A stretch of 64,000 nt of DNA from an uncultured cyanobacterium (GCA_963744145.1 CAVUSO010000001.1:3776001-3840000); one strand, 5' to 3'. Positions 2,063 to 41,752 are shown, counted from the first letter of the stretch. Notes: generated by a model not told the origin, from the sequence alone. Numbers and translations are program-made.

Positions 2063-5000
2063 TCACTCTGGAATAGCTTCATCAATTAACTGCATTAATT
2101 TTATCGTCTCTTTGAGTGCAACAACTATACGCTGATAATGTTGGATATCTTCAGGGGTAAGAGTGCGTCCTTTACGATCCTTCAGCCATTTTTGACAAAC
2201 TTGATAACCCCCGACATAAAAGTTCCATACTTCTTCAGGTACTCCAGTAAATTTGTCTCCTTTTTTGTTAATTTTGACGCTGTTTTGCTCATATTTTGGA
2301 TGTCCTGGGTCAACTACGCGATCGCCCCCAGTTTCGATAAAATTGGTAATCAGTGTGTCAAGTTTAGGAGATTTCATTAAGTGTAGAGCAACTAGTTCTT
2401 CACCATAGGTGGAAAGCTGACAAAATAGTTTATTGTTGCTGGTAAGAGGAACACGAGGAAAGTCTATTTTTAGAAATTCGGCATAGCGAGTACGATAGGT
2501 TGGAGAATGAAAAACAGCATAGATATAGTAAAAAATTGCTTCTGCTGTGGGTAAATAGCCTAGCTTGTTAGTTATTGCTATGAGAAATTCTTCAGAGAAG
2601 TTAGAGCGGCGTTGTTCTTGTAATTCTTGAGGTTTATCTATATCGGGATAAATATAAAGAGGAATTGTAAAACCACGTTCACGAGTTTTATTTGAAACAT
2701 AACAATCATCTGCAACGTAATTTGTCACTAACGTATGTTGCCATGAATCGCTAATAACTTGTCTACAAATATGAAAACCAATATTAGTTTCTATTTCCAT
2801 ATGACGCATCACTTCTTTTCTTGGATATTCTGCAATATCTTCATGATGATAATATGATCTAGAATCAAATGGACGATAAGAAGATTTAATAAGATAATCT
2901 ATCCATTCAGTACGAGAACTTAGTTCTTTTCTCTTTTGACTTAATTTCCAATCGCGGGTATCTTCCAATCCATATTTTTCTCGTATAACTTCATCCGAGA
3001 TATTTGTATCTCTAAATTCCTCAATTCTTTTAAAAAGAGAAGTATAGTCAAAATCGTAGGCAAAATGATCACGATGAGTTTTAATTCCTGTTGCATTGAC
3101 TGGCATTAAATTAGTTATTTTCCATCCTTTTGAATACTCTGGTAAAAGCTCATTGTTTTGAGGAATAAAAAGAGAAAAAGGTTTTTGTGGTAAAAGGTTT
3201 GTCCAGTCTGTAGATGTAGGTAAAACATTATGGTTTAGTAGCCACTCATATTTAGAGCCTCTTGTACCGTATAAATGCGCGTGGTTGATTTCAGATGCTA
3301 TTGGATTTTCATCCTTTACCATAATACAAACCGCTACACCCTGCTGAATATCAAATACATTCTCATCCTTTGCTCTATCTAATGCTGTTTCTTTTTTCTT
3401 AGAATTTCCATGTAAATCAAGTACATGAATGCAGTTAAAACTTTTGGCTAAACTCTGTCGCATTCCCCGAAATGTAGGATTATCTAGATAACCGTGATTG
3501 GTTACAAAAGAAAGGATTCCTTTACCTGTTTTATCAATACGCCACTGTGAAAAGCGAATAAACTTAACATAGTCATCTAATAAAAGCTTAGGATTCTGCT
3601 CTTTTATCTCATCTTTAGGATAATAGCTATTTCGCACTAAATTTGTAGCCCATTCACTATTGTTTGCTGAATTTACCGAATAAGGAGGATTACCAATTAC
3701 TACCATTACAGGTATATCTAACTTTACACTTACTGCTGCGTCAGATTCCTCAGCAATAAATTCCTTAAATAATGTTTCCGATCGCCGTTTGGCATCATCT
3801 AGTGTATTAGTTAAATAAACGCCCAACCTTTGACCACTATCAAACAGATATCCTGTCTCTTCCAAAAATAATCCTAATTTAAGATGAGCGATCGCATAGG
3901 GAGCCATCAACAACTCAAACCCAAAAATCCTCGGTAATAACCTCTCCTTCACATATCCAGACCAAGACTTATCCTCTAAACCTTCAGTCAGAGCATCTGA
4001 TGACTCTTGAAAACGTTGATAAATTAATTGACAAATCCATAATAAAAACGTCCCTGTCCCACAAGCAGGATCAAGAATCATCACCTCTGGATCTGCTAAA
4101 CCCAAAGGTTTATTAAACTTCTCCTTGACTAAAATATCTACAGAACGAACCATATAAGAAACAACTGGTTCCGGTGTATAATAAACCCCCCGACGTTCTC
4201 GCATCTGTGGTTTATATGCTGCTAGAAAATCTTCATAGAACCGAATCACAATATCTTCCCGGTTCATTTTCATCTCAAAATCTGACAAAATTGCATCCAT
4301 CTTAGCAACACGGAGAATTCTAAAAATCTCCGCGATCGCACCAATCAAATCATCCCCCAATTCCTCAGCTTTACGTTCCGAGACATCCTTAAACAACTTC
4401 CGCAAAAAAGGGTTAGTTTCTGGTAACTGTTCCCAAGCTTTTTCTCGATTAAAATGAGTAGGTTTACTAATCCGTCCTTCTCGTTTATCCTTGACATAAC
4501 TAAATACCCTAGCTGTAAATAAAGCATAGGCAATAGTTTGGGCATAAATATCAGCAAAACTGTAATCTTTCTCATTATCTGCACTTAACTTTAAAGCAGG
4601 TAATAATTCCCTTTGAAAACTCTTAAGTAAATGGTGCAAATATCCATCTTCTTGCTCTTGTTTATAGACAACAGGAATAACTTGCTCAATATTACGAGCT
4701 GCTTTTGCTAACAATTGTGCTAATTCCTGAGCAGTTTTAATTGGTTCGTAAAATACCCACTCGACCAAAGGAACAGAAGTTAACCCCATCGTCGCGATCG
4801 GTAACTCATCTTGTCTAAGACGGTTTAAACGTGCTACCAATTGGGCATCATTTCTAGCAAAAGTTTGAATTTGCTTTGCTCGTAATCCTCCCTCACTAGG
4901 AAGAATTAAAGGTACTGTTCCAGTCACTGCTTGATTTGGTAACAGCAAATATATTACTGGTTGATCTTCTAAGATCCGATTTGTCCAATGTCCATATATT

Positions 5001-34152: not shown

Positions 34153-36964
34153 ATGGTTAAAGTAAAAAATTCAGACTCAATACTTAATTCTATTAAGCGA
34201 TCGCCTAAATTTAGTTTAATTCCACTCAGACTAATCCTCATAGCCCCATTTATTATTCAAATCTTTGCTGCTGTTGGATTAACAGGATGGTTAGCTTTAC
34301 GCAATGGGCAAAAAGCTGTTAATGATGTAGCTCAACAGTTGCGCTCAGAATTATCCCAGCGGATTGAGGAAAAACTAAAAACCTATACAGAAATTACCCA
34401 CGCTATCAACCATTTTAATACTGCCAATTTTGCCAGAGGTGTAATTGATGTTAGTGGTGTCAAAGGTGAAGCGCAAATGTGGGACCAAATGCAGATTTAT
34501 CCTGACCTCAGCGATGTTCACTGTGGGGATGAAAATGGTGGATATATTGGTATTGTTAGGGTTTCAGCCCAAGATCGTTCTAAGGTGAATTTAGTATTTA
34601 GCAATCCATCGACCAATTTTATCCTTCAATACTTTGCCTTAGATTCTCAAGGTAATCGTACTCAAAAGGTGGAATACACTATTAATAAGCCCTACGATCC
34701 CCGAGTTCGACCTTGGTACAAAGCAGCCAAGACAGCAGGGAAAAGCGTTTGGAGTGAAATTTATCTTGATTTTTCTACCTTATATCCGACACTAAATGGT
34801 AATGTGCCTGTCTATAGCCCAACGGATAAATCTTTTATGGGCGTTTGTGCGACAGCCTTCTATTTACCCCAGGAAATGTCAAAGTTTCTGCAAGGTTTAA
34901 AGATTGGGAAAACAGGTACAGTGTTTATGATGGAACGCTCTGGACGACTGGTGGCAACTTCTACTAAAGAACCTATGCTCGATGGTCAGGGAGAGAATGT
35001 TACCCGTTTAGCAGCAGTCGATAGTACCAATCTCACCATTAAAGCTACAGCGCAGCTTTTGAGCGATCGCTTCCAAGACCTCAACCAGATTCAATCCGTA
35101 CAACAAATTGACTTTAAAGGCGTCAGGTAAGAAGGATTATATCCAAGTAGTGCCATTTAAGGACTTGAACCTAGACTGGCTGATTGTGATTACTATTCCC
35201 GAATCAGATTTTATGGAGCAAATCGATGCCAACACCAATACAACAATTATATTATGTTTAGGAGCCTTAGCAGTAGCAATTGTGTTAGGAATTTACACCT
35301 CTCGTTGGATTTCTCAACCCATTGCCCGGTTGAACAAAGCATCTCAAGAAATTACTAGAGGAAACCTAGACCAAGAAATCCAACCAGAAAATATTAAAGA
35401 ACTGGATCAGCTTGGTCAGACATTTAATACAATGAGCCATCAACTTCAGTCTTTTTTCCACGCTCTAGCCCAAACTAATCGAGAACTCGAACAACGAGTA
35501 GAAGAACGCACCGCCGACCTAAAACAATCCAAAGAAGAAGCAGAACTAGCCAAACAAGCAGCATATAGTGCTAATCAAGCTAAAAGTGAATTTCTGGCTA
35601 ATATGAGTCATGAACTTCGCACTCCCTTAAATGGTATTTTAGGTTATGCCCAAATTCTCGGGCGGATGAAAGAACTTCCTGAAAAAGCTCGTCATGGAGC
35701 TAATGTTATCCATCAATGTGGTTCTCATTTATTAACCCTAATCAATGATGTTCTAGATATCTCTAAAATTGAGGCTCGTAAACTCGAACTAGTGCCTAGT
35801 GCTGTTCATTTACCATCACTGATACAAGGTGTTGTCGAAATCTCTCAAATCCGCGCTCAACAAAAAGGTATTGAGTTACATTACGAACCTGATCCTAACT
35901 TACCTAATGGTATTGTTATTGATAAAAAACGGTTGAGACAAGTATTGATTAATCTTTTAAGTAATGCGATTAAATTTACTGATCAAGGTCGGGTTACTTT
36001 GAAAGTTGAGCCGCGAAATATTAATCAAGATGTGATTAATCAAAACCAGATCCTTCTGTATTTTTCTGTCACTGATACTGGGATTGGTATCGCCCAGGAA
36101 AATCTCCAAAAATTATTTCAAGTTTTTCAACAAGTAGGCGATCGCAGTCGTCACGCAGAAGGAACAGGTTTAGGATTAGCAATTAGTCAACAAATTCTCC
36201 AATTAATGGGGAGTAAAATTCAAGTTGAAAGTCAACTGGGAGTGGGCAGTAAATTCTTTTTTGAACTAGATTTATCCTTGCATCAGGAATGGGTAGAGCA
36301 ACAAACCATTGAAGCGGGTAATATTAGCAGCTATAATGGCAGGAAACAACAAATTTTAGTTATAGATGATCGTTGGGAAAATCGGGCTGTAATTGTAAAT
36401 TTATTAGAACCTATTGGTTTTGTAGTTAGGGAAGCAGAAAATGGACAGATTGGTTTAGACAAAATGCGGGAAAATCTACCAGATTTAATCATTACAGACC
36501 TAGTAATGCCCGTAATGGATGGTTTTGAAATGCTCAAACAATTGCGAAATGATCAGAAATTAAAAGATTTAAAAGTTCTGGTTTCATCGGCATCTGTAGC
36601 ACAACTAGACCAACAAATGAGCTTAGACGCGGGTGGGGATGACTTTCTCGCTAAACCAGTGAACGCTCCAGACTTATTTAATCTCTTAGCCCATCATTTA
36701 CAACTGACTTGGAATTATGAAGAAGTAGAAGTAGTAGTAAGCGAGCAAGAAATAATATTTCCCCCAGCCTCTGAACTAGAGCAAATCTATCAAGCTGGTA
36801 GAATTGGTGATATGGATACGGTGATAAATGAAGCTAATCGGTTAGAACAGTTAAACCCTGAGTATAAACCTTTTGTTGATCGTTTAAGGGAATTTACTGA
36901 CAATTTTGATGACACTGGTATTAGGAAATTTATTGAACCGATTATGCGATCGGATCACCTCTAA
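34153..36964 (+). pseudogene. Cache-HAMP-HisKA-HATPase-REC hybrid histidine kinase split by one frameshift near 35120
   Basis: 34153-35130 encodes TM+Cache (YDPRVRPWY); overlapping 35108-36964 continues ([38 protein letters not shown], receiver domain). Confidence 0.85.
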
Positions 36965-37237
36965 TCGCCGAATATGTGGACAAAAGTGGACTATACGGCA
37001 TAATTGTATCCATCGACCCGGTGAACTATTTGGCAGTATTTAGCTCTCACAGGGCTAATCTTGCCCTTGGCAGTCACCATTTCAAACACACCTGTGGCAC
37101 GAACAGTTAAGCGCCCAATATGAGTTCCTGCGAATTTTCCTTTTGGCAGAGTAGCGCGGACTATATCCCCAGTTTGAAACCCGAAAAAAGCTTTCTGTCT
37201 AGTTCGATGTCTGATCGGAAAACCATATTGGTTGGTA

Positions 37238-38817
37238 AGTAGTCGGACATAAATAAAGTTAACTATGTTAACTTTATTTAAGAGTAAATTTGACCCACAA
37301 ATTTACCAGAGAAAAGCATATAAAAGTATTCCCTCCGTCCAACTGAATAGGTTTCACTAGAGAGTAAGAAAACTGCATTTCCAGATTTTCTATTAACTAT
37401 AAATATGGTCAGTTTTGCCTCAGCCTCTCATTAAACAATTAATGGAATTTTTCCGGTTGACTAGAACTAGAATAAACCCGATTAGGATTTTTGTTCATCC
37501 TGGCTAGGCTGACCACCAAATCTAAATCTTTTTACTTCTAAGCCCTTACTAGTTTGACGAGCTTCGATTGCTGCTCTTACCGCGATGGTTAATTCATATT
37601 CATTCTCAAACATTTGACCAGCTAATTCATCTTCTTTGATTCTTTCCCACTCCGTTTCAATCAGATTTAATTCGGGAGAGTAACTGGATAATAGGAATAT
37701 ATATAATCCTTGTTTTTCCCATTGATCATAGTTGCTCTTCGTCAATTTACTTACGTGAACGGAATATTGGTCTTGGACAATTACAGTTATTTTGCCCGTT
37801 TCTTTCAATCTAGTTTCCGCTTGCGCGGCTTGCCAATCCATTAATTTGATATAATTCTTACTGTCAAAACTCTTAAAACTTAATCCATATTCAAAGCTTT
37901 CTCCCACGGCCAAAAATCCACATATATTTAATCTTTTCCCTTTCTTTTTAGGCTGTTTGATCTGTTTCTGTTGGCCGATTTTCCCCCAGGTATATACAGG
38001 TTCAGCCCACAGGCTAAATCCTGATTCATCCAAATATTTTAAACATATTTCACCCGCGGCTGCCGCGAATTCCAACATCTCTAAATCATTTCTTTTAGTT
38101 GCTCTTTTTTCCTGGTCTTGCTTTCCTTTTAGAGATGTTCTCGTTCTTTTCCACCGATAGTTTTTTTTGAGGATTCGACGCAACTGTCTTTGGCTCAGTT
38201 TTACTTGCCTTTCCTGGGCTAGATATTTCACTAACTGACGACTATTATAAGCTCGTTCCTCTGTCTCTAGTTTTTTTTCAATTTCTGCCAAATCTGCCTG
38301 ACTCCATTTTCTTTTCCTGCCCGGACGAGGCGCATCCCATAATCCTGCTAATCCCTGTTTTTCCCAACGATGTATTGTGGCTCTCACTGTCTTAATTGAC
38401 CAGTTCAGATACTTGCCGATCTGTTCCACTTTCCATCCCATTGATGATAATCTCAAGTTCGCAGCCCGATCTCTTGTTCTTAGTGGAACTCCCTCGGCTC
38501 TATTTAATTCCCATAAGGTTTGATTTTCCGCAGATGTTAAAAATATTCTCAAAGGAGGAGATGACATTTTCTTCAAACTTTTAAGTTAGCTCTATAATTA
38601 TTTCACAATCAGGGTGTTTTTTTTGAAGCTAAAATCGACCTCACTTATCCCCTTAATTACCAAAATAAGTCTAATTTTTTGCTCCCATTGTCCAGCCACT
38701 TCTTTGGCCAATCTTCTCCAGATTGGACTAATTTTTCGATGACTTTGTCCAGCTTATTGCTTGACCCATACGTTTTACAAAAGTTAATACAGTACCTATT
38801 ACTTTTGTCCGACTACT
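37238..38817 (-). mobile_element. IS630-family insertion sequence, 1580 bp
   Basis: TIR AGTAGTCGGACA at both ends; TA duplicated at 37236-37237 and 38818-38819. Confidence 0.93.
37482..38576 (-). CDS. IS630-family transposase
   Basis: HTH, PRPGR, YLDESGF, VQDQYSVH, SYSPELNLIE. Confidence 0.93.
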   Translation of the reverse strand: MKKMSSPPLRIFLTSAENQTLWELNRAEGVPLRTRDRAANLRLSSMGWKVEQIGKYLNWSIKTVRATIHRWEKQGLAGLWDAPRPGRKRKWSQADLAEIEKKLETEERAYNSRQLVKYLAQERQVKLSQRQLRRILKKNYRWKRTRTSLKGKQDQEKRATKRNDLEMLEFAAAAGEICLKYLDESGFSLWAEPVYTWGKIGQQKQIKQPKKKGKRLNICGFLAVGESFEYGLSFKSFDSKNYIKLMDWQAAQAETRLKETGKITVIVQDQYSVHVSKLTKSNYDQWEKQGLYIFLLSSYSPELNLIETEWERIKEDELAGQMFENEYELTIAVRAAIEARQTSKGLEVKRFRFGGQPSQDEQKS

Positions 38818-39859
38818 TAGTAGACATTTGGCGAGTACCCCATCCCTTAGCCGTAATCAGTAATGGCTTAGTAGTTTTTAAGGCTAATTTCTCAACTACT
38901 CCTACACAAGCTGCATCAAGATAGTGACGTTTTTCAATGCCTAATTTGACGCGATTGAATTTAGTTCTACCACCAGTCCACACCTCAACAGCTAGACCTG
39001 TTTCTCGTAACCGATGATATAATTCCCATCGGGTTGAATTGACAGCCGCAGCGTCTTTTAATGGTGCCTTAGCTTGCGTTAAAACTCGCTTTAAAATTTC
39101 TGGTTGATTTTTCAAAAATTTCTCAATCTGCTCATTACCTTTTTTCTGATTACAAGCATGACAAGCTAGGGTAAGATTGCTGACTCTGTCTGTTCCACCT
39201 TTACTTTTAGCTAAAATGTGTTCAATCTCTAGGGGCGTTTTTTTAGCACCACAATAAACACATTTTCTGCCCCATTTTGCCAGTAAGTATTCGCGAACTT
39301 CGTACCCTTGTAGTTCCCCTTGTTGATACTCAGTACCGCTAATTTCAGGATTAACTAGGGCTTGAGGATCAAACCTTACTAACTCTTGAGAAATGCCTGT
39401 AATTGGGGCAAATTTCCTGAGTCTGTTTACCCAAGTTAGAGTGGTTTGGACTCGGTGTTCAAGACTGGGTGCTAACCAACCTTTAGGACGGGTTCTATTT
39501 AGAAATCTTGCTTGGCGATAACGAGTTTTACGGTTCCGTCGAGTCCGACGCAACGCTCGACCGAGACTCAAGATTAGCTTTAATTGCTTGACCACGATGG
39601 GTTAATTCTGCACCCCAAATAACCGCATCATTAGATACTAATGCCAGACCAGTTGTTTGAGAACCTGGATCTATTTTTAACTGAACTGGTTTAGTTATTT
39701 CAGTTGACACAGTTTTTAAGATGATTGTAAATGGAAATCTCCGCCAAACTGCGGCTTTCCCCCGATTCAACAACAATCGAGCTTGTGCTGGATGAACAGG
39801 ATTAATTGGGCGCTTGTTGGTATCGATCACAAAAACCAAGTTAGACATAGTTGAAACTC

Positions 39860-40093
39860 TGATTGCTCAGGTAATTTTTTCCTCGTCAATGTTACTTAGG
39901 CTTGTCATGTTCAGTTCACTTTCTTGAGCTAAATAGGAATGTTTAAAACTGAACGGCAGAGCTAAAAGCTGGAAAGCACTCGCAGGTGCCATGACCCAAG
40001 TAACGTAGTCCCTCGCTTTGCTTAGAACTGAGACTGGCCATCTCTACACTTTATGTACTGGTTGTCCAGATATGTCCAGTGTTTAGCGGATAG
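39860..40093 (-). ncRNA. omegaRNA scaffold (HEARO-like); boundaries approximate
   Basis: Minus strand carries HEARO-like blocks in order (GGCCAGTCTCAG, CTACGTT, CACC..TGC..CCAGC..GCTCTG, TTAAACA, AACATTGACGAGG) directly upstream of iscB. Confidence 0.85.
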
Positions 40094-40176
40094 CTATAAT
40101 TTAATCTTCAACATGGTAGTGAAATGATGTATATTAAAGGTAAGAGAGAAATGAAAATTTGTCTACTATCTGGGAG

Positions 40177-41752
40177 CAATACTCCGGACAAAATTAAACT
40201 GCAATCGCACCGTAGGAAAGTAGTTCTGAGTAATTGGGATGGCTTTTGATCAAAGTCGGCTCCAAATCTAACTTCAAAATAAATTGTTCCAAAAGATGCG
40301 CGTTGAAGGCTTGGCGTTTATAAGTAGCCATAGAAAAGATAAAGGGCTCATCTTCTTGATGGTTTAATCTGGCTGATAATTTGGCAATATTCAAAGCTGT
40401 CAGACTAGCATTAAAATGAAAATCTAATTTGGCCGCATCACGGGCTTGACAATCCACTAATCCTGTAAACTGTTTAGCATCACGAAAAATAAATTCAATC
40501 TGAAAACGAGCCTGATAATACTCGTAAATTTCCAGGGCGGTCAGCGACAAATCTGTTGAAAACAAAATTAGATAACCAGTTTTGTCAGGCTGACGCTGAT
40601 CAACAACCACGACAATTTTAATGTTTCTCTCTAAGGAGACATGATTAACTATCGCACTATAAATATTAACTGATTTCTCAACTTCCTGGCCCCAAGTCAA
40701 ACGACTTAAATTAGTGAAATTGACTTTTCCTGCATAGAGACGTGGGCGACCACGCTCTTTTTGTTCACCCTGATATAAATAACGCATATTGGCATCAATC
40801 CGCAATTTACCTAGGTAATGAAAATTGACAGATATCACCCCATCAACAAACTTTTTTTTACTATAGTACCCATCAGCTACTAGGTGGCGTATATCCGATG
40901 GAATATAGCTTTGAGCTCTTTTTAGTTGCTCTAAATACTGATCTACTCTTGTAGCTTCATCCTCTTGATTGTCCGATGTTTTCGGACTAGATTTTCGGGA
41001 TTTTTTCTGATTTTTTCCTGGCGATTTTTTGGTGGTTTTTCTTGGTGATTCTGTGGGCAAAGATGGTGATGTTTGCTGAACAGATAAAGCATAAGCCGTG
41101 TTGATATCTAAATCAATAAGTGCGAGCAGAGAAATTTCTAACCCCCGTTCTGCTTGGCTCTTACTACTATTATAGAAATAATCTTTTCCATAGGTTTTTT
41201 TACCACTTTTTTGAATAAATGAACAGTCCATTGCTAAAATTTTTCGACTCGTGACCGCTAGGGCTAATTGCAGGAGTTGTTTATTTAACTCCAAAAAATT
41301 GAAGGAGCGCTGAAAATGGCGTCGATAAGTTTTTTCGTTTAACTGCGAGTAACGACTTAAATTAGTAAAATTGACTTTACCATAGACTAACAAGATAGTT
41401 GTCATTAAGGTTAAGAAAAATTTTTTTTGAGCTTTACTAATCCCAGCAAGTTGAGTTAAGATGTTTTCTAGAAAATTCATAATTATCGGTCGGGTGGAAT
41501 TTACTATGTAAATTCTCTCACGATCGATATTTTTTTGGTGATCTCAGTAAGGAAAAAATTGCGCCCAATCCGTTCGGTTGCCTGATTTGGCCAGAAAATT
41601 GTTCAAGTAGAAAACGATTCAGAATCGAAAATATCTGCCAAATCAGGTTTTCGGCTAGTCCCAGTCTGTCTTTTGGCTATTGGACCGAAAACTATTGGTT
41701 AGTCAATTATACCTATAAATAATTTTCTCTCACCAAAGTGTCCGGAGTATTG
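40177..41752 (-). mobile_element. IS4/IS701-like insertion sequence, 1576 bp
   Basis: Perfect 14-bp TIR CAATACTCCGGACA; 6-bp target duplication TGGGAG (40171-40176, 41753-41758). Confidence 0.93.
40194..41480 (-). CDS. DDE transposase
   Basis: AMDCS, VADGYY and YQARFQIEFIFRDAKQ (Y-2-R-3-E-6-K signature). Confidence 0.92.
   Translation of the reverse strand: MNFLENILTQLAGISKAQKKFFLTLMTTILLVYGKVNFTNLSRYSQLNEKTYRRHFQRSFNFLELNKQLLQLALAVTSRKILAMDCSFIQKSGKKTYGKDYFYNSSKSQAERGLEISLLALIDLDINTAYALSVQQTSPSLPTESPRKTTKKSPGKNQKKSRKSSPKTSDNQEDEATRVDQYLEQLKRAQSYIPSDIRHLVADGYYSKKKFVDGVISVNFHYLGKLRIDANMRYLYQGEQKERGRPRLYAGKVNFTNLSRLTWGQEVEKSVNIYSAIVNHVSLERNIKIVVVVDQRQPDKTGYLILFSTDLSLTALEIYEYYQARFQIEFIFRDAKQFTGLVDCQARDAAKLDFHFNASLTALNIAKLSARLNHQEDEPFIFSMATYKRQAFNAHLLEQFILKLDLEPTLIKSHPNYSELLSYGAIAV

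Follow-up and report, generated by a model that had tools for sequence, protein, structure and literature searches.

A probable IS607-type IscB–omegaRNA element, now dead, in a HIP1 site of an uncultured cyanobacterium

We analysed a 64,000-nucleotide stretch of DNA from an uncultured cyanobacterium (GCA_963744145.1, CAVUSO010000001.1:3776001-3840000; hereafter the window, in whose coordinates positions are given), which carries at ~36952-40094 an element encoding IscB, the protein ancestral to Cas9, with a HEARO omegaRNA. Judging from its sequence, the window copy is probably (at roughly 0.75) a dead, non-autonomous IS607-type IscB element made up of a left end, an iscB gene on the bottom strand, a HEARO omegaRNA and a right end. 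Its family has transposed to at least 11 places in the genome, landing in the HIP1 palindrome (GCGATCGC). In alignments, homology extends position by position from the boundary between both of its ends and those of autonomous elements with genes for TnpB and for a serine TnpA that has a MerR-type helix-turn-helix (HTH). With a similar probability, we propose that the family is mobilised in trans by an IS607-type serine recombinase. A preliminary description of this DNA had raised mobilisation in trans by a serine-type or other recombinase, and the serine version is now supported by end alignments, a common left-end signature and hairpin-free ends. Comparisons with print draw on passages of PMC6188088, PMC10055086, PMC10691335, PMC10711439, PMC4810608, PMC13565253, PMC9956272, PMC4390886 and PMC5861425.

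Using BLAST against the window's own 7.7-Mb genome (39% G+C; G000), we identified 11 family copies with mutually unrelated flanks: five at full length (the window's and four others, three of them with an intact IscB of 424 amino acids, for instance at G000:C1:7021879-7023150), five minis and one partial copy. The minis, of 420–480 bp, retain ~45 bp of the left end, the omegaRNA and the other end. At all ten available right ends the likeness stops after ..GGATAGC (window 40094), the following base being T, T, C, A, A, C, G, A, C and T. At the ten left ends it extends 7–13 bp past position 36959, and the outermost block reads GCGATC(G/A) in six, CGATCG in two more and GATCG in one more. Two empty sites reveal the target. 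One, in a duplicated segment that lies 3 kb away from mini m3192, has the sequence ..CACTG GCGATCGC AGTAAA.., and the filled m3192 site holds GCGATCG, the element and C where the empty site has GCGATCGC. The second is given by five paralogues of the kinase gene that flanks the window element on its left, which read ..GATTMTGCGATCGC(C)ATAATTTAATCT.., that is, GCGATCGC followed by the window's right flank. Neither site shows a target-site duplication (n = 2). From these two sites we conclude that the element sits in HIP1, at or between its positions 7 and 8, without duplication. The palindrome occurs 7852 times in this genome against 41 occurrences expected.

In the window, the left part of the target (GCGATCG) occupies 36946-36952 (+), where the empty sites read GCGATCGC and upstream of which the ten left-end flanks differ. 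The element interrupts the penultimate codon of a gene for a hybrid histidine kinase (35108-36964, overlapping target and element at 36946-36964). The kinase paralogues end ..M R S P stop and the window gene ..M R S D H L stop, so the host gene loses almost nothing, because the TAA of the TCTAAT box in the left end supplies a stop codon.

These comparisons shift the boundaries given in the preliminary description, which had set the left one at 36959, with a CT flanking both ends and an AG/CT core of 2 bp. All ten left ends share their sequence as far as 36946-36952 (the whole of GCGATCG or a portion), and C36959 and T36960 lie inside a conserved stretch in which CACC runs into TCTAAT. There is no shared flanking CT, since T40095 is not conserved among the ten right ends. 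The 11 copies and the empty sites contradict the proposed core and place the junctions in HIP1, and an outermost shared block beginning at CTAATCGCC found no support. Other 2-bp cores (GA, TC, CG, or GG further inside) were considered and rejected, as they need right-flank bases that are absent from the empty sites.

The architecture described earlier for the ends themselves was borne out. Paired TGGAC motifs 10 bp apart are present at 36977 and 36987 (+) and, as GTCCA, at 40064 and 40074, and the two ends are imperfect inverted copies over ~30 bp (this terminal repeat, which needs a gap, fell outside the 25 longest of the 61 pairs of the repeat finder). The left end (36953-36995, +) consists of seven variable bases, the TCTAAT box (36960-36965), 11 bases and the motifs at 36977-36981 and 36987-36991; in IS607 terms it is the tnpA-proximal end, and it corresponds to the 3' end of iscB. 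The right end (40060-40094, +) has GTCCA at 40064-40068 and 40074-40078 and terminates in ..GGATAGC. The motifs thus lie 25–39 bp from the left terminus and 15–30 bp from the right, with a helical phasing of 10 bp. Composition predicts 7.5 occurrences of TGGAC-N5-TGGAC in the genome; 15 are present, 11 of them in ends of the IscB family, from which it follows that the pairs are not due to chance.

When anchored at the boundary and aligned without gaps (alignment A1), the window's left end stands in register with three autonomous IS607-type left ends and one relic, at an identity of 32–38 of 50 positions that none of 200,000 random genome windows reached. The right end, likewise anchored at the boundary (alignment A2), stands in register with four IS607-type right ends at 19–22 of 34 positions, a level reached by 1–26 of 200,000 random windows. 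Both ends are kept together across IscB lineages that are only 66% identical in protein, as seen in the copy from genome G061.

Imperfect inverted repeats of ~30 bp would also suit movement of the cut-and-paste kind, in which a DDE transposase acts on terminal inverted repeats, and DDE elements abound in this genome: copies of IS630-family and IS4-like elements flank or split the locus. We regard this as highly improbable: neither empty site shows a target-site duplication, ~8 outer bases of the left end have no counterpart at the right end, and no intact copy (1559–1571 bp) contains a DDE gene.

Elements that pair the same ends with a serine recombinase exist in this genome and in other genomes. 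Pfam searches of the genome returned 17 Y1_Tnp and six Resolvase matches, and a short-word BLAST with the two ends located a perfect match to the outermost 23 bases of the left end; it lies ~310 bp upstream of one of the Resolvase genes, behind which comes a tnpB. The tnpA of this local IS607-type element matches Resolvase and, weakly, MerR (E = 9e-4, below the cut-off). The stretch behind its tnpB stop is identical to the IscB right end at 22 of 34 positions and has the same terminal ..AGC. The left end of the local element contains an insert; in a relic (C1:1873797-1873857), an outer left end of the IscB type runs directly into the sequence found just before the local tnpA. Relatives of this TnpA, 79–92% identical, were found in G061, G097, G135, G222 and G323, and in G298 the identity is 86–89% over the assembled tnpA fragments. 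Intact tnpA-tnpB elements headed by a TnpA 79–88% identical are present in G061, G097 and G135. In these relatives the left end lies ~70–90 bp before the tnpA ATG and reads (G)(C)GATCG, 7–8 bases, TCTAAT, ~11 bases and two T(G/T/A)(G/A)ACAA motifs 10 bp apart; the right end lies at the tnpB stop, with two TGT.CA motifs within the last tnpB codons, and terminates in ..CAG(C/G). Two further tnpA-headed left ends of the same type were seen in G155 and G158. For the G061 element, Pfam assigns MerR and Resolvase to TnpA, and Cas12f1-like_TNB with a weak, sub-threshold OrfB_IS605 match to TnpB. IscB copies with the TGGAC-type left end co-occur with the matching type of TnpA in G000, G061 and G097.

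To take a census of the left end, we searched 401 genomes of the order for exact matches to the signature GATCG-N7-TCTAAT-N11-TGGAC-N5-TGGAC, using the reversed pattern as a control. The signature was matched 33 times in nine of the 401 genomes and the control in none. Details cover the 26 loci returned of the 33 matches. A serine tnpA on the same strand begins at +71 to +75 in eight of these (G135, G222, and three each in G298 and G323), an antisense iscB ends at +47 to +50 in four (G000, G061, G186 and G248), and the remaining 14 have neither gene. These geneless loci comprise four of this genome's own minis, four further minis of ~400 bp ending ..GGATAGC, one locus without a recognisable right end and five cut by contig ends after ~50 bp; at least eight of the 26 are thus minis with only an omegaRNA. 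GC precedes GATCG in 19 of the 26, and all flanks differ further upstream. As the census indicates, one left end serves three kinds of cargo: tnpA, iscB or none. The draft assembly of G389 holds 16 signature matches (for example, L199, L203 and L209), mostly ~400-bp omegaRNA-only minis with IS607-type ends, and no close TnpA was found in it (best identity 54%).

The preliminary description had set these ends apart from the hairpin ends of IS200/IS605 elements, and this distinction held: folds revealed no hairpins, and Y1 tnpA genes were absent within 4 kb of all 80 related iscB loci. As single-stranded DNA, the window ends fold like their shuffles (z = +0.13, -0.24, -0.30 and -1.47), as do the ends of the G061 IS607-type element (z = -0.05 and -0.50). 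The 3' end of a hairpin-type IscB relative (L026, 65% identical) gave z = -2.59 and -1.98, with stems of 6–7 bp. Most of the 80 loci end in hairpins and ..ATGA, an end type already known from Kapitonov et al. 2016 (PMC4810608), and such hairpin-type relatives provide the nearest IscB proteins (55–66% identity). This genome itself contains two hairpin-type IscB/HEARO elements ending ..TTTTATGA (G000:C1:1713107-1714593 and 402130-402592), one with a frameshifted iscB and the other a gene-less mini.

The presence of these elements, along with the 17 Y1_Tnp matches in the genome, is one reason to consider the window element an ordinary ISC element of the IS200/IS605 type, moved as single-stranded DNA by a Y1 HUH TnpA that cuts 3' of ..GATCG on the left and ..GATAG on the right. 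The element enters a specific site without duplicating it, the sequences that precede the two cut points (GATCG and GATAG) show a likeness of the kind seen between the cleavage sites of IS608, and Y1 mobilisation was predicted for all ISC elements by Kapitonov et al. (PMC4810608). We nevertheless find it improbable. Neither end has a subterminal hairpin, every end-like match is more than 5 kb distant from the 17 Y1 matches in this genome, and the same ends, with GATCG and ..AG junctions, bound elements that have a serine recombinase as their sole transposase. Beyond the right end, the first base is constant here (C in 10 of 10), which has been named as a trait of IS607 elements, as opposed to a variable base in IS200/IS605 (PMC10711439).

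The distribution of end types was also viewed on a quick tree of IscB proteins (76 rows, with loci that had stops or short matches dropped, and with end-type groups assigned by eye). A branch with a Shimodaira–Hasegawa-like approximate likelihood ratio (SH-aLRT) support of 90 has the HIP1/TGGAC group on one side, and two further groups with phased direct-repeat ends appear in a few other places; the tree tells us that end types are clustered, and nothing beyond. Other IscB clades also end in phased direct repeats with a TTAGA box. Classifying the 3' ends automatically, from their fold energies and 5-mer repeats, proved too noisy because flanking DNA was counted in, and was discarded.

Several observations weigh against mobilisation in trans by an IS607-type recombinase, for which the entire case is drawn from comparisons of sequence. 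Among the 80 related iscB loci, none unites a serine tnpA and iscB within one pair of ends, and a serine recombinase lies within 4 kb at only two, adjacent at neither. In the four genomes with the closest IscB relatives, no close TnpA was found (the best being ~50% identical), and the TGGAC-type left end was found at none of their 12 loci. The best TnpA in the draft assemblies of G248 and G389 is only 52–54% identical. The outer right-end motif has been replaced (..CTGAAAGCG..) in four to five copies, one of them with an intact IscB. The local IS607-type element is decayed, with a 1-nt shift in the HTH of tnpA and a frameshifted tnpB, and the IscB family copies differ by 6–18%; given this divergence and the broken local tnpA, the family is probably inactive in the genome now.

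A further difficulty lies in the junctions themselves. HIP1 positions 7-8 are the only place able to hold a 2-bp crossover, and the candidate is a G-S dinucleotide at 36952-36953 on the left and 40093-40094 (GC) on the right. Crossover by a serine recombinase is generally taken to depend on overhangs that match, with the same dinucleotide at both junctions. In the copies of this genome the left junctions read GG in eight of ten copies and AG in two, the right junctions GC in ten of ten and the target GC, so that only the G is common. Matched junctions were found in only four elements, all in other genomes: GG/GG in the IS607-type element of G061, and GC/GC in the IS607-type element of G097 and in an IscB element and a mini of G061. 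It is conceivable that the overhang strand of each end stays with that end during passage through the circle, in which case a mismatch at the second base might persist at the left end and be copied from the target at the right.

The lack of an autonomous tnpA-iscB element among the 80 loci, together with the several genomes that have these IscB copies or minis and no close TnpA, would also be expected if the likeness of the ends were a by-product, the IscB–omegaRNA module having entered a decayed IS607-type mini, with its copies multiplying afterwards through duplication or through some other recombination system directed at HIP1 rather than through IS607 TnpA. HIP1 has been linked to site-specific recombination and to the precise insertion of SDR5 repeats (PMC4390886). 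The same source places SDR5 insertions between HIP1 bases 3 and 4, not 7-8. We consider such a history unlikely, as the eleven copies are sharply bounded and lie in unrelated surroundings, the two ends have been maintained as a pair between lineages whose IscB proteins are only 66% identical, and the gene-less minis retain exactly the two ends.

Two candidates for a closer association were rejected. In G389, a serine tnpA (1501-2052, -) and an iscB (2587-3498, +) stand back to back, 535 bp apart, in locus L214 (G389:C59:30068-33569); the pair is divergent and has other end motifs (TAGAC type), so that it probably represents two neighbouring elements rather than one autonomous tnpA-iscB element. 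It would pass as 'associated' under a 1-kb adjacency rule. A second lineage, in which IscB clades with CTACG repeats would share an IS607 end in the same genome, was dropped after no matching left end was found at 18 serine-recombinase loci in five genomes.

The omegaRNA scaffold, upstream of iscB (39871-40094, -), matches Rfam RF02033 at 110.2 bits (gathering threshold 83; E = 4e-23) over the whole model (1-211 of 211), and 11 of the 15 HEARO matches in the genome belong to the TGGAC-ended IscB family. The earlier proposal, made for the left end, that an end doubles as the 5' stem of the omegaRNA is supported for the end at 40094, because the RNA starts exactly at this position and its first helix uses the terminal bases GCUAUC. 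With this start at the right boundary, the guide of the omegaRNA would come from the bottom strand of the right flank; the putative guide lies at 40095-40110 (-), directly 5' of the HEARO scaffold, in line with published IscB work (PMC10055086). In the IS607-type partners, both right-end motifs fall in the last tnpB codons (..F V Q. C. A stop; L020:3034-3093 and L134:2323-2382), and the homologous bases in the IscB elements form the HEARO 5' stem-loops on the opposite strand. The same end sequence thus serves three readings, as tnpB codons in the partners and as HEARO stem-loops in the IscB elements.

For mobilisation by an IS607-type recombinase, we envisage that a TnpA supplied in trans would bind the phased TGGAC(AA) motifs 15–40 bp inside each end and excise the element as a double-stranded circle, which would re-insert by crossover at the G-S dinucleotide within HIP1 (..GATC-GS). 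Binding of TnpA to phased end motifs has been footprinted for IS1535 (PMC6188088). Excision would restore HIP1 directly 3' of the guide-matching sequence, where the IscB–omegaRNA might cleave the empty site, its predicted target-adjacent motif (TAM) being all or some of GCGATCGC, and so bring the element back by homing. Homing after cutting of the empty site has been shown for IscB of the IS605 type (PMC10055086). Contigs from one soil-metagenome run, with 0.65 of the sequence words, gave fragments and no joints.

The window copy is no longer able to make IscB because of a frameshift and a nested insertion sequence, both overlooked in the preliminary description. Its iscB, on the minus strand, is in three pieces: residues 1-99 and 112-343 lie in two frames within 38820-39848 (-), and residues 344-423 within 36994-37237. 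The former segment covers the N-terminal and middle parts (RRXRR/RuvC and HNH by Pfam) and is broken by a 1-nt insertion (+1 frameshift) at 39560, mapped against copy c7021, which leaves open reading frames at 39528-39848 and 38813-39595 in different frames. The C-terminal fragment (36991-37237, -, from translation and tblastn) has 92.5% identity to residues 344-423 of an intact sister copy, and its stop codon (36991-36993) overlaps the inner TGGAC of the left end. Pfam recognises RRXRR (4.8e-74) and HNH (3.8e-12) in the intact sister, a RuvC domain split by HNH. The pieces are separated by a nested IS630-family insertion of 1.58 kb (37238-38819, -) with inverted arms at 37236-37286 and 38769-38819, perfect inverted tips of 14 bp and a TA duplication; its transposase frame (37482-38576, -) matches DDE_3 and HTH domains. 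Without this insertion the window element measures ~1.56 kb, comparable to the 1559–1571 bp of its intact sisters. Outside the nested insertion only IscB is encoded; the element lacks a transposase of its own, as the preliminary description had noted. No serine tnpA is present in any of the five full-length copies, and the element is therefore at most a non-autonomous IS607 member.

Other repeats occur nearby or share part of the end sequence. The IS630-family element has ten copies in the genome that are 99.7–100% alike, which indicates recent activity. Its insertions also disrupt the tnpB of a different IS607-type element (C1:6217900-6219482) and, in mini m6261 (C1:6261037), the right end. 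An IS4-like element (40176-41480) lies ~81 bp to the right of the IscB element and encodes a DDE_5/DDE_Tnp_1 transposase (40194-41480, -); it is matched perfectly across 218 bp by at least five other copies. A variant outer left-end block, in which the full HIP1 is followed by ATCACTTCTAATCGC, heads short repeated units at G000:C1:2437786, 2438606, 6094951, 6095848, 6396284 and 6396468, which have a TGGAC/TAGAC pair in some cases and a long hairpin in others; these units may be further gene-less relatives of the same end type. Long diverged tandem arrays (G000:C1:2336500-2347300, 860000-877000 and 4811000-4823600) gave hundreds of BLAST matches at 68–80% identity to a stretch of ~275 bp. One array ends just upstream of the decayed IS607-type element, and the diverged tandem array is probably a giant repeat-protein gene.

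Two of the published surveys drawn on state that serine recombinases are found with tnpB but not with iscB, and a 2026 review lists only 'IscB in IS605' and 'TnpB in IS607'. Set against those reports, an IscB element with IS607-type ends would be a new variant. We found no description of IscB elements with IS607 ends or a HIP1 target in the literature, subscription papers lying outside the search. The surveys looked at neighbouring genes, and common termini can reveal a partnership that adjacency misses.

On balance, we lean slightly towards the broader view that one or more lineages of cyanobacterial IscB–omegaRNA elements have left Y1 'peel-and-paste' transposition and ride on IS607 serine recombinases, with HIP1 as both landing site and TAM. 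Because HIP1 is palindromic, a single site could be the 5' TAM for TnpB and the 3' TAM for an IscB on the other strand. If this is true, two unrelated RNA-guided nucleases share one transposase, one pair of ends and one target. If mobilisation by an IS607-type recombinase is right, IscB homing is not bound to single-strand transposition, and the two transposon families can swap ends and nuclease modules. It would also make testable a compact IscB with a predicted, very specific palindromic TAM of 8 bp, and would give a concrete user to HIP1, whose role has been debated for thirty years.

Among known systems, the SDR5 repeats of Nostocaceae resemble the window element in being mobile and in reportedly inserting precisely into HIP1 (PMC4390886 and PMC5861425); compared by description only, they differ in inserting between HIP1 bases 3 and 4 and in having no gene or guide RNA. 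PATE-like elements and stand-alone omegaRNA minis of OMEGA systems have their likeness in the five minis of this genome and at least four elsewhere, which consist of ends and HEARO only, the difference being that the minis of the window family have IS607-type ends.

The IS607 family itself, including IS607 of Helicobacter pylori and IS1535 of Mycobacterium, has ~10-bp phased direct motifs 10–60 bp from the termini, no target-site duplication and crossover at a dinucleotide (PMC6188088). The window element shares the phased direct motifs of ~10 bp, 10–40 bp inside the ends, as well as the lack of a target duplication and the fixed first base after the right end (PMC6188088 and PMC10711439). Unlike IS607 elements, it carries iscB and a HEARO omegaRNA on the opposite strand instead of tnpB, its tnpA is not in cis, and its target is HIP1 (..GATCG|S) rather than a bare GG, with a G-S junction that in this genome differs from one end to the other. 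ISC elements of the IS200/IS605 superfamily, as described in PMC4810608, are also non-autonomous, ~1.5 kb long and limited to IscB; they insert site-specifically without duplication and share termini with a TnpB element whose tnpB is on the other strand. In that account (Kapitonov et al. 2016, PMC4810608), it is with IS605B elements that ISC elements have termini in common, iscB lying antisense to tnpB. ISC elements have subterminal hairpins and a predicted mobilisation by Y1 TnpA (PMC4810608), whereas the window clade has no hairpins and shares its termini with serine-recombinase elements.

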